Sequence record: NC_007817.1
Length of the DNA stretch: 5,486 nucleotides
Reading direction: 5' to 3' (one strand)
Source of the DNA: Escherichia phage ID2 Moscow/ID/2001
Shown here one piece after another: positions 62 through 3,829 of the stretch. The notes under the pieces were generated by a model. The model was not told where the DNA came from. It did no database searches and was given only the letters and a program-made list of their open reading frames with translations. Made by a program: the position numbers and the translations under genes. Position 1 is the stretch's first letter. Every line of letters begins with the position of its first letter.

Positions 62-1723
62 ATGCAACAAGCTAGTGACTTCTACAACAAACCACATATC
101 GACGCTATCAAACCACTCGTTGAAACCGCTGGTATGTCTGTGCTTTCTCAATCTCCAAACCTCCGTATCTGGAAACAGGTAAATTCCCGTATCAAACTAT
201 TGGAAGAAATCCTTGCTCATTACACCAATGGCATCCGCCGTGATGACAACGGCGACTTCTGGATGAATCCCAATTCTCAACTCGCAACCACAATTGCCTA
301 TCGTGCCCATCAAAAAGGACACAACCCAAAACTCATTCAATACCCTGATACATTCACTCTGGATGACATCATCCGTAAAAAGCCATTACCACAAAACGCT
401 CCTGACGAATTAAAACTCTCCGATGAAATCGGGGAAGACTATCGCCTTACAATCATCTCTCTAATCGAAGAAATGCAAGAAATCTACGACGTGCTCGGAC
501 AACTTGATATTAATAACACTATAGACCACAAACCTATCGGTAACGCCCACTGGAATCTACTCTATGAAAAACCTGTATATAAACACTGGTATGAACTGGT
601 ATCAAAACGACCCCTTAAATCAATCAGAGACGACTACAACTATGCAAAGGCTAAGGGTATTAAGGATGAATGCTCGAAAATCCTTGAGGAATCCACCATG
701 AAATCACGTAGAGGCTTTACCGTACAAAGACTAATGAATGCTATGCGCACTGCCCACACTGAGGGCTGGTACGTTGTATTCGATACTCTTACTCTCGCCG
801 ATGACCGCCTTAAGGATTTCTATGATAATCCCAATGCTCTCCGTGACTATTTCCGTGATATTGGTCGTATGGTTCTCACTGCCGAGGGTCGTTCTGTCCA
901 TGATTCATCTTCGGACTGCTATCAGTATTTTTGTGTGCCTGAGTATGGCACCCAGCACGGCCGTTTACATTTTCACGCAGTGCACCTTATGCGCACACTT
1001 CCTCTGGGTTCTATCGACCCTAACTTTGGCAAGCTGGTGCGTACTAATCGGCAAATAAATAGCTTGCAAAATACATGGCCCTATGGTTACTCTATGCCCA
1101 TCGCGGTCCGGTACTCCCAAGACGCATTTTCGCGCGCTGGCTGGCTCTGGCCCGTTGATACAAAGGGCGAACCTCTTAAAGCTACCTCGTATATGGCTGT
1201 CGGCTTCTACGTCGCTAAATACGTTAACAAAAAATCAGATATTGACATGGCCTCTAAAGGTCTAGGGAATAAAGAATGGAACAATTCACTCAAAACCAAA
1301 ATCAACCTGCTGCCCAAGAAAATTTTTCGCATCAGGATGTCTCGCAACTTCGGAATGAAGCTGCACACAATGAGTCACCTCTCAGCGGAAACTCTAATCC
1401 AACTGACCCAAGTGGGCTACGACGTGACCCCGTTCAACAACATCTTGAAGCAGAACGCCAAGAAAGAGCTACGATTGAGGCTGGCAAAGAAATCTGTCGC
1501 CGACGTTTTGGAGGCGCAACCTGTGACGACCAATCTGCTAAAATTCATGCGCAATTTGACCCGTCAAATCGGAGTGTCCAACCTGCAGAGTTTTATCGCT
1601 TCAATGACAACGAAATTAACAAGTATGGATATTTCTGATGAAACCAAAAACTACGTTGATACTGCAGGAATTACTGCTACTCACTTACGAATTAAATCGA
1701 AGTGGACTGCTGGTGGAAAATGA
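62..1723 (+). CDS. A: Replication initiation protein A (HUH rolling-circle endonuclease). Start at ATG 62 preferred; the longest ORF begins at ATG 32.
   Basis: ORF 32..1723 (563 aa). It carries the HUH motif HFHAV (H at 968-970 and 974-976) and the catalytic tyrosine pair in YVAKYVNK (Y codons 1208-1210 and 1220-1222), both as in phiX174 gpA from memory. The C-terminal ~340 aa align closely with phiX174 A. ATG 62 has a GGAGG Shine-Dalgarno at 48-52 with 9-nt spacing; ATG 32 has no recognisable SD. Confidence 0.85.
500..529 (+). other. Viral (+) strand origin of rolling-circle replication, conserved 30-nt gpA recognition/nick site
   Basis: CAACTTGATATTAATAACACTATAGACCAC at 500-529 is, from memory, identical to the phiX174 30-nt origin. 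The expected gpA nick is between G506 and A507. It lies inside gene A, as in phiX174. Confidence 0.85.
698..1723 (+). CDS. A*: A* protein, in-frame internal initiation within gene A
   Basis: In-frame ATG at 698 begins MKSRRGF, the same residues that begin phiX174 A* as I recall it. GAGGA SD at 686-690 with 7-nt spacing. Product 341 aa, sharing the A stop. Confidence 0.6.
1276..1638 (+). CDS. B: Internal scaffolding protein B, overprinted inside gene A in another frame
   Basis: 120-aa ORF, the same length as phiX174 B. Shares the conserved C-terminal block [10 protein letters not shown]...QPAEFYRF...GYF with phiX174 B from memory. AGGGA SD at 1264-1268, 7 nt upstream of the ATG. Confidence 0.9.
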
Positions 1724-1808
1724 AGAAATTCAATCTGAACTTAAAAAATTCGAGAAGCTCTTACTTCGCCACCTTTCGCCATCACCTGAACGTACTGGCA
1801 AAGACTGA
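1638..1808 (+). CDS. K: Protein K, small ORF spanning the A/C junction in the third frame
   Basis: Not in the ORF track (56 aa). ATG 1638 overlaps the B stop as TGATG. Hand translation: [56 protein letters not shown], stop TGA 1806-1808. Same length and similar sequence to phiX174 K as I recall it (..[25 protein letters not shown]..). Confidence 0.7.
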
Positions 1809-1974
1809 CGCTCTCGACGAGGAAAAATACCTAAATATGCTAGGTGCTCTCCTCAAGGACTGGTTCCGTTACGAAGAACATTTCGTACATGGTAAACAAT
1901 CAATGCTTGACTTATTAAATGAACGTGGACTATTATCCACATCAACAACCAACCCAAAAGGAAATACAAAATGA
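1720..1974 (+). CDS. C: Protein C (switch from dsDNA replication to ssDNA synthesis and packaging)
   Basis: ATG 1720 overlaps the A stop as ATGA. 84 aa beginning [21 protein letters not shown], close to phiX174 C ([21 protein letters not shown]) from memory. The track ORF 1702..1974 starts at an upstream GTG; the ATG at 1720 is the homologous start. Confidence 0.85.
1907..1936 (+). promoter_or_regulatory. Candidate sigma70 promoter P_D, inside gene C upstream of D
   Basis: -35 TTGACT at 1907-1912, 18-nt spacer, -10 TATTAT at 1931-1936. Predicted TSS near 1943, about 28 nt before the D ATG, similar to the leader length I recall for phiX174 P_D. Confidence 0.4.
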
Positions 1975-2545: not shown

Positions 2546-3829
2546 ATGTCTAACGTTCAAACTTCCGCTGACCGCATTCCTAACGACCTTTCTCACCTCG
2601 TCTTCGAGGCTGGTAAAATCGGCCGTTTAAAAACTATCTCCTGGACTCCAGTTGTCGCTGGCGACTCATTTGAAACTGAGATGGTAGGCGCTATTCGCCT
2701 TTCTCCACTCCGTCGCGGCCTTGCCGTCGACTCTCGCGTGGATATCTTCTCTTTCTATATTCCGCATCGTCATATCTATGGTCAAGAATTCATTGAATTC
2801 ATGAAAGCTGGCGTTAATGCCACTCCTCTCGCACCTGTTACTACTGCCTCTGGCTGGGATGCTTCTGCCTATCTTGGCACTATTCCATCCTCAAACCTCA
2901 AGGTTCCTAAATTCTTACATCAAGGATACCTTAATATTTACAACAACTACTTTAAGCCACCGTGGGATGCTGACCTTACATACGCTAACCCATCTAACAT
3001 GCCTGAACAGGATTATAAATGGGGCGTTCGTGTCGCTAACTTAAAATCTATCTGGACCGCCCCCTTACCTCCTAACTCTAAAACATCAGAGACTATGACC
3101 ACTGGCGCTACGTCTATTGATATTATGGGCCTGCAAGCTGCTTATGCTAAATTGCACACCCAACAAGAACGTGACTACTTCATGACTCGCTATCGCGATA
3201 TTATGAAAGACTTCGGAGGTCACACCTCCTATGACGGTGATAACCGTCCTCTGCTGCTTATGCGCTCTGAATTTTGGGCCTCTGGCTATGACGTCGACGG
3301 TACTGACCAATCCTCTTTAGGTCAGTTCTCCGGTCGCGTCCAACAAACATTCAATCACAAAGTACCTCGCTTCTATGTACCTGAACACGGCGTCATTATG
3401 ACTCTCGCCGTTACTCGCTTCCCTCCTACTCATGAAATGGAGATGCACTATCTTGTCGGTAAAGAATCTTTAACCTATACCGACCTCGCCTGCGACCCTG
3501 CTCTTATGGCTAACCTGCCTCCGCGCGAAGTATCCCTTAAGGAATTCTTCCACTCCTCGCCGGACTCCGCTAAGTTCAAAATTGCCGAGGGCCAATGGTA
3601 TCGCACGCAGCCTGACCGCGTCGCATTCCCTTATAACGCACTTGACGGCTTTCCTTTCTACTCTGCTCTGCCGTCTACTGACTTAAAACAACGTGTCCTA
3701 GTTAACACTGATAACTACGACGAAATCTTTCAGTCTATGCAACTCGCACACTGGAATATGCAAACTAAATTTAATACTACCGTCTATAGACATATGCCTA
3801 CGACTCGTGATTCAATCATGACGTCATAA
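2546..3829 (+). CDS. F: Major capsid protein F
   Basis: 427-aa ORF, the same length as phiX174 F. The N-terminus MSNVQTSADRIPNDLSHLVFEAGKIGRLKTISWTPVVAGDSFE matches G4/phiX F from memory. AAGGA SD at 2535-2539 with 6-nt spacing. Confidence 0.95.
   Translation: MSNVQTSADRIPNDLSHLVFEAGKIGRLKTISWTPVVAGDSFETEMVGAIRLSPLRRGLAVDSRVDIFSFYIPHRHIYGQEFIEFMKAGVNATPLAPVTTASGWDASAYLGTIPSSNLKVPKFLHQGYLNIYNNYFKPPWDADLTYANPSNMPEQDYKWGVRVANLKSIWTAPLPPNSKTSETMTTGATSIDIMGLQAAYAKLHTQQERDYFMTRYRDIMKDFGGHTSYDGDNRPLLLMRSEFWASGYDVDGTDQSSLGQFSGRVQQTFNHKVPRFYVPEHGVIMTLAVTRFPPTHEMEMHYLVGKESLTYTDLACDPALMANLPPREVSLKEFFHSSPDSAKFKIAEGQWYRTQPDRVAFPYNALDGFPFYSALPSTDLKQRVLVNTDNYDEIFQSMQLAHWNMQTKFNTTVYRHMPTTRDSIMTS

Follow-up and report, generated by a model that had tools for sequence, protein, structure and literature searches.

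The 5,486-nucleotide (nt) genome of Escherichia phage ID2 Moscow/ID/2001 (NC_007817.1), analysed at its full length and called the window throughout, carries genes A, B, K and C in overlapping reading frames, and this group of genes is the subject of the present study. The window is the complete genome of a G4-like Bullavirinae microvirus of the Gequatrovirus talmos group. Together the results lead to the conclusion, to which we assign a probability of about 95%, that the region is the canonical block of overlapping genes, A/A*/B/K/C, in a G4-like phage of the Bullavirinae. All four genes are under protein-level purifying selection, and the constraint on K could be partitioned quantitatively: its N-terminal half prevails over the tail of A, and C prevails over its C-terminal half. 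The block itself is not novel. The overlapping genes of phiX174 and G4 are a founding textbook example (Barrell 1976; Sanger 1977) and K was discovered by genome comparison (Tessman 1980); the arrangement has been known since the late 1970s, with K added in 1980. The discovery value is small, since the nearest relatives are already annotated with the same coordinates.

A preliminary description made from the letters of the window alone had recognised the genome and placed all of its boundaries in this region correctly, and it can therefore be regarded as a positive control. Its coordinates for A, B, K and C (Table 1) were exact when compared with a reading of the sequence and with the listing of open reading frames (ORFs), and its gene names and overlaps agree with the GenBank annotation of the nearest relatives and with Pfam families. 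The two shared junctions that it named, TGATG for the B stop and K start and ATGA for the A stop and C start, are both present. By position modulo 3, the frames are 2 for A, 1 for B, 0 for K and 1 for C, and each gene ends in TGA (A at 1721-1723, B at 1636-1638, K at 1806-1808 and C at 1972-1974). K thus extends 85 nt beyond the A stop and shares its last 89 nt with C. The further statement that every nucleotide from 1276 to 1808 is read in at least two frames was borne out, as 528 of these 533 nt lie under exactly two genes and five (1638 and 1720-1723) under three. That all three forward frames are coding is correct for the region overall but not for each nucleotide, nearly all of which are read in two frames only. 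The absence of K from the ORF track, which had been attributed to a length cutoff, is accounted for by the 56 amino acids of K against a cutoff of 60. Automated gene callers, too, seldom list K, as its overlaps with the neighbouring genes exceed 80 nt.

The four proteins match their Pfam families far above the cut-offs. A matches Phage_GPA (PF05840; 199 bits, E 9.5e-59), and its translation holds the HUH motif LHFHAVH and a catalytic tyrosine pair ([10 protein letters not shown]) in alignment columns that are invariant across six genomes; A* is 81-93% identical to the A* proteins of phiX174 and G4. B matches Phage_B (PF02304; 160 bits, E 4e-47), and C matches Phage_C (PF12025; 125.7 bits, E 6.3e-37) as well as phrog_1465. 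K matches Protein_K (PF12283) over residues 1-51 with 65.1 bits (E 6.6e-18; the cut-off is 25 bits), and phrog_1713 over its full length (E 1.8e-31). The positions of the genes agree with these assignments: K opens at the B stop, is read in the A+1 frame and extends over the A stop into the 5' part of C, as in FL76, G4, ID18 and phiX174, and C lies between A/K and D with ATGA junctions to both A and D. A single-sequence AlphaFold model of K predicts a two-helix hairpin with helices at residues 3-22 and 29-46 (mean predicted local distance difference test score 82).

The coding status of K was examined by comparison in two gap-free alignments. The first comprised 20 G4-like and phiX-like genomes aligned from the A* start to the K stop, and the second comprised 15 alpha3-like genomes drawn from the GenBank records of St-1 and WA13 and from a K-blind A* scan. 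Parsimony changes per site were counted on a neighbour-joining tree (with 13 distinct sequences in the alpha3-like count), and pairwise nonsynonymous (dN) and synonymous (dS) divergence was calculated by the Nei-Gojobori method for the window versus G4. The K ATG lies at the B stop within a conserved T(G/A)ATG in 35 of 35 genomes of the three established genera. The preliminary description had named stops interrupting the K frame in close relatives as a point that would count against it; the frame is intact in 19 of the 20 G4/phiX-like genomes, all 19 of which encode 56 amino acids, and in all 15 alpha3-like genomes, 14 of which encode 53. An alignment of K over the three genera retains the pattern TLLxQELxLL...LLRxLS.

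Variation within A is redistributed where the other genes lie over it, and the reduced synonymous variation of A under B and K that the preliminary description had anticipated was observed. In the 20 genomes, third positions of A fall from 1.20 changes per site in A-only sequence to 0.97 under B (P=0.009) and to 0.50 under K (P=2e-4). The positions that are first in A and third in K rise under K from 0.32 to 0.69 changes per site (P=0.002). The alpha3-like clade provides an independent replicate, in which third positions of A fall from 0.62 to 0.11 changes per site under K. Across both sets the variation at A third positions is thus lowered 2.4- to 6-fold under K, and the third position of K becomes the most variable. 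The pairwise values run in the same direction. In the A-only segment dS is 0.49 and dN 0.022, under B they are 0.28 and 0.067, and under K dS is about 0 and dN 0.105; for the N-terminal half of K, dS is 0.29 and dN 0.018, a dN/dS of about 0.06. Furthermore, alpha3-like phages contain a 26-nt stretch in which K alone is coding, and here 8, 3 and 1 changes were counted at K codon positions 3, 1 and 2, respectively.

The loss of synonymous variation in A at 1638-1723 might instead be due mainly to nucleic-acid elements, such as the ribosome-binding site of C, a Rho-dependent terminator close to where B ends, or structure in the mRNA or single-stranded DNA. Candidates for such elements exist here or in phiX174: the Shine-Dalgarno-like GGTGGA of C lies at 1712-1717, Logel and Jaschke described a Rho-dependent terminator, T_C, which acts at the 3' end of phiX174 gene B and lowers the K transcript, and complete mutagenesis of phiX174 found synonymous changes to be detrimental at promoters inside A and C (bioRxiv 10.64898/2026.07.25.740675). 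An RNA or DNA element would, however, be expected to depress all codon positions and not to shift variation to the wobble position of K, yet the A-first/K-third positions vary twice as much under K as in A-only sequence (0.69 versus 0.32). The K frame moreover shows a normal, low dN/dS, and the same pattern is found in the alpha3-like phages, whose C start lies another 26 nt away. We therefore consider it improbable that such elements are the main cause, and protein coding by K is the better explanation.

The selection acting on K is unequal along its length. In the A/K overlap the cost of the constraint on the N-terminal half of K (residues ~2-27, [20 protein letters not shown]), the better conserved of the two partners, is borne by the A tail, which absorbs the changes. 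In the K/C overlap C dominates and the C-terminal half of K is nearly free to vary. C evolves under K (1720-1808) nearly as it does on its own, with dS of 0.87 under K versus 0.52 in the C-only segment (window versus G4), and its third positions show 1.26 versus 1.66 changes per site (P=0.06), so that suppression is not clear. Where K overlaps C, its dN is 0.2 and its dS 0.02. Some conservation in the C-terminal half (LLRxLS) nevertheless spans genera.

Several observations on K weigh against our reading. The C-terminal half of K carries no clear selection signature of its own in these comparisons. The natural G4-like isolate WA2 (DQ079896), the one exception to the 56-residue length, has a premature K stop (1638-1790) and a K of 50 amino acids, annotated as such, with C unchanged; two alpha3-like genomes, L024 and L106, have no K stop codon, and their K is extended by 7-9 residues (to 62 amino acids in L024). 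This truncation and these stop losses fit a weak constraint on the C-terminal half. Proteins of the alpha3 type gave no Pfam Protein_K match at E <= 1. The evidence that K is made and that it affects burst size comes from the phiX174 literature only and applies to the window by analogy, and in the same complete-mutagenesis screen of phiX174 K nonsense variants were tolerated and K was dispensable. Finally, one more distant genome (L012) has no intact K and a group of deeper relatives has none, both described below.

The openness of the K frame is also a weaker argument than it may seem. In a resampling test, synonymous codons were redrawn with the A and C proteins held fixed. None of 20000 such re-codings of A left the 120-codon B frame open. 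The 56-codon K frame was open by chance in 4.1-4.8% of the re-codings of the window, in 5% for phiX174 and in 36% for St-1, another point that counts against our reading. K is often open by chance because the frame that it uses, +1 relative to A, is stop-poor throughout the genome, with open +1 runs of up to 116 codons (in H). We therefore rejected the open K frame as stand-alone evidence. A K ORF in a single genome is only marginal evidence, and the case for K thus rests on comparison and on published experiments.

These observations would favour K being a non-functional, incidental open frame, kept open by the amino-acid needs of A and C and translated at most as noise. The frame's chance openness and the stop-poor +1 frame, the tolerance of K nonsense variants in phiX174, the truncation in WA2 and the lack of K in L012 and in deeper relatives all lie on this side. 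In opposition stand the low dN/dS of the N-terminal half of K beside an overlapping A tail with raised dN and almost no dS, the move of the most variable codon position to K third positions, the 8:3:1 coding pattern of the alpha3-like K-only stretch, and the start context that is invariant in 35 genomes. A lack of K translation had been named by the preliminary description as grounds for doubt, and K is among the 11 phiX174 proteins, all of which were quantified by mass spectrometry (PMC8125068); an influence of K on burst size has been reported (Gillam 1985), and phiX174 annotations put the fall in burst size at 3- to 6-fold. Taken together, we consider a non-functional K very improbable.

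With respect to the WA2 isolate, its K stop matches a G1788T-type change that is silent in C. The phage SECphi17 (LT960607) aligns over K residues 1-49 only.

More distant relatives were recovered by scans based on A*, including a metagenome scan that returned mostly phiX174 copies, probably sequencing-control contamination, and that gave L044, L106, L109, L113 and L118-L120. In L012 (A* 66% identity; 2040-2290) the B stop reads TCTGAAG and not TCTGATG, so that no ATG is present; the K frame closes at 2282-2284 after ~30 codons, and a K of at most 23-24 amino acids would be possible. The contig contains an N at ~2065 and an apparent A/B frameshift, which we did not accept as real and took to be an assembly problem, and because of both the missing K of L012 is weak evidence only.

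In L026, L027, L028 and L109, which have no separate K, a single ORF begins at or shortly after the B stop (Table 1). It is read in the A+1 frame, overlaps the final 70-83 nt of A and closes at the D start. Weak colinear hhalign matches to C (E 0.012, 0.0026 and 0.001) were obtained with the ORFs of L026, L027 and L028, and that of L109 gave a sub-threshold Pfam Phage_C match (E 0.11). Searches of the L026, L027 and L028 ORFs against Pfam and PHROGs found no match to a K or C family. The single-coded part of the L027/L028 ORF shows 6, 3 and 12 changes at codon positions 1, 2 and 3. Additional scans of viral_contigs for relatives of L026 and L027 returned only the same contigs. Deeper still, L118-L120 (JYMV01 contigs; A 28-31% identity) carry a Phage_B-like gene inside A that ends in ...YEK(Y/F)GY(F/L). 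Neither L119 nor L120 has a third-frame ORF, and their following gene begins at the A stop codon or immediately before it; L118 ends inside A. The presence of an A/B overlap without a third-frame gene in these contigs indicates that the A/B overlap is much older than K.

Based on these comparisons, K is confined to the crown group of phiX, G4 and alpha3, and elsewhere a C-like gene uses the frame and the start site of K. This provides a small lead on the origin of K. Pavesi's work on codon usage assigns a de novo origin to both E and K and classes the A C-terminus as a de novo overlapping extension (PMC8227390). It is conceivable, if unlikely, that K did not arise purely by de novo overprinting and is what remains of the 5' part of an ancestral C gene that was longer. 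In the crown group the body of C lies ~31-49 nt (3n+1) downstream of its place in the deeper relatives; it is read in the A+2 frame from a start at the A stop or beyond it. Under this hypothesis that start would be new, and the old C start site and the conserved N-terminal half would persist as K. Such an origin would explain why the first half of K is constrained and the second half is not. A comparison of the K profile with the C profile gave E 0.25, and homology of K to the C N-termini of the deeper relatives was not shown. No meaningful direct repeats were found in 1560-1900. A duplication separating C from the A tail was also considered and found to be unsupported, given the lack of a direct repeat and the same profile comparison.

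The signals around the four starts suggest how the block could be expressed. The K start has the weakest anti-Shine-Dalgarno pairing of all gene starts in the window (-3.1 kcal/mol, with the others at -4.0 to -9.5 and a genome median of -1.7). C has the GGTGGA element, whose duplex is -4.9 kcal/mol, separated from ATG 1720 by 2 nt (1718-1719). The longest ORF of A opens at ATG 32, which has no Shine-Dalgarno sequence (+1.9 kcal/mol), and ATG 62 is preceded by GGAGG (-9.5 kcal/mol); relatives are annotated from 59 or 62, and FL76 and FL68 from 62. ATG 62 is thus probably the start of A, giving a protein of 553 and not 563 amino acids. Overlapping stop/start junctions of the UGAUG and AUGA types occur at 1636-1640, 1720-1723 and 1971-1974.

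From these features we propose that one strand would be transcribed and that ribosomes would initiate independently at four sites in three frames. A and A* would share one frame, and B would be read from its own start inside A in the A+2 frame. K would initiate at the AUG that shares a base with the UGA of B and be read in the A+1 frame through the last part of A and the first part of C, and C would initiate at the AUG that overlaps the UGA of A. Since the Shine-Dalgarno sequence of K is very weak and the UGAUG junction is conserved, K is probably translated mainly by termination-reinitiation coupled to B. Ribosomes terminating on A/A* may likewise help translation of C, as GGTGGA together with an AUG over the A/A* stop would allow both direct initiation and coupling to A/A*. 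Downstream, a sigma-70-like promoter match inside C (10 of 12 consensus matches) is a candidate D promoter (pD) by its position, since the phiX174 literature puts pD inside C; the number of such matches was not above the shuffled expectation.

Table 1. Positions of the overlapping genes and associated signals in the window, and of the single ORF found at the K site in deeper relatives
Feature	Record	Position	Strand	Basis and remarks
Gene A, replication initiator (HUH-type Rep)	window	62..1723	+	Pfam Phage_GPA; GGAGG before ATG 62; FL76 annotation 62-1723
A*, in-frame internal start within A, 341 amino acids	window	698..1723	+	annotated in FL76, FL68 and G4
Gene B, internal scaffolding protein, 120 amino acids	window	1276..1638	+	Pfam Phage_B; wholly within A, A+2 frame
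TGATG, B stop (1636-1638) and K start (1638-1640)	window	1636..1640	+	sequence; nucleotide 1638 common to both
Gene K, 56 amino acids	window	1638..1808	+	A+1 frame; shared with A over 1638-1723 and with C over 1720-1808
GGTGGA, Shine-Dalgarno-like element for C (putative)	window	1712..1717	+	embedded in A and K coding sequence
ATGA, C start (1720-1722) over A/A* stop (1721-1723)	window	1720..1723	+	sequence; read by A, K and C
Gene C, DNA maturation/packaging switch protein, 84 amino acids	window	1720..1974	+	A+2 frame; Pfam Phage_C; FL76 annotation
Sigma-70-like promoter match inside C, candidate pD	window	1907..1936	+	consensus scan; TTGACT, 18-nt spacer, TATTAT
ATGA, D start over C stop	window	1971..1974	+	sequence; FL76 annotation of C 1720-1974 and D 1971-2426
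One ORF starting at the B stop	L026	720-983		A* 49% identity
One ORF starting 0 or 3 nt past the B stop	L027 / L028	1269-1451 / 1706-1885		A* 37-38% identity
One ORF 9 nt after the B stop	L109	2459-2728		A* 45% identity; own AAGAGG

Further downstream in the window, gene D contains E (2146-2421) in its +1 frame, and a TAATG (2424-2428) joins the D stop to the J start.

The Mycolicibacterium phage J1 record (MZ417522.1; 24,953 nt) is 77% identical to window 1200-1900 at 2988-3680 on its minus strand, and a Protaetiibacter phage record also matches this region; these stretches are likely phiX-type contamination or chimeras. The metagenome contig FUFK010037421.1 (327,964 nt; among L045-L121) consists of dozens of tandem phiX174 copies at a spacing of ~5386 nt, and almost certainly reflects contamination by a sequencing control or an artefact of assembly.

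The block of the window can be compared with those of four known systems. Of these, the alphatreviruses alpha3, St-1 and WA13 resemble the window in that K opens at the B stop, within T(G/A)ATG, and is read in the A+1 frame past the A stop into C, and their K shares the conserved N-terminal motif of the window K. They differ from the window in that the ATGA junction is absent, the A stop and the C start being 26 nt apart with K alone coding between them, and in that their K has 53 amino acids and forms a separate PHROG family, phrog_8511. The annotation of the K start varies within this group: in St-1 K is annotated from 2142, inside B (2142-2318), and in WA13 from the B stop (2158-2319).

phiX174 (NC_001422) is ~77% identical to the window in the alignable parts. 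Like the window, it has B inside A, the TGATG (B stop/K start) and ATGA (A stop/C start) junctions, a K of 56 and a B of 120 amino acids, and a gap-free alignment from the A* start to the K stop. The two phages are 61% identical in K, 57% in B, 72% in C and 78% in the A C-terminus, and C has 86 amino acids in phiX174 compared with 84 in the window.

The G4/ID11-type phages are closer, at ~84-91% identity. In G4 the B, K and C coordinates and junctions are the same as in the window, and the ATGA junction between the A stop and the C start is common to G4, ID18 and phiX174. The K proteins of G4 and of the G4-like coliphages (ID11, NC13, ID8, ID18 and others) are 73-84% identical to that of the window. 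The G4 genome is longer, at 5577 compared with 5486 nt, and its C/D junction is different: D starts at 1976 in G4, 2 nt past the C stop, whereas in the window D overlaps C through the ATGA at 1971.

No record identical to the window was found in the collection searched. The top whole-genome match is Enterobacteria phage FL76 (Gequatrovirus talmos, KF044310), with 97.7% identity over 100% of the length, and FL68 (KF044309) is 99.4% identical to the window over 1200-1900. Both phages are like the window in length (5486 nt) and gene order, and the annotated coordinates of A*, B, K, C, D, E, J, F, G and H are the same. The differences from the window are a few point changes, so that the K proteins differ by 1-2 residues, including residue 38, which is F in the window and L in FL76 and FL68.

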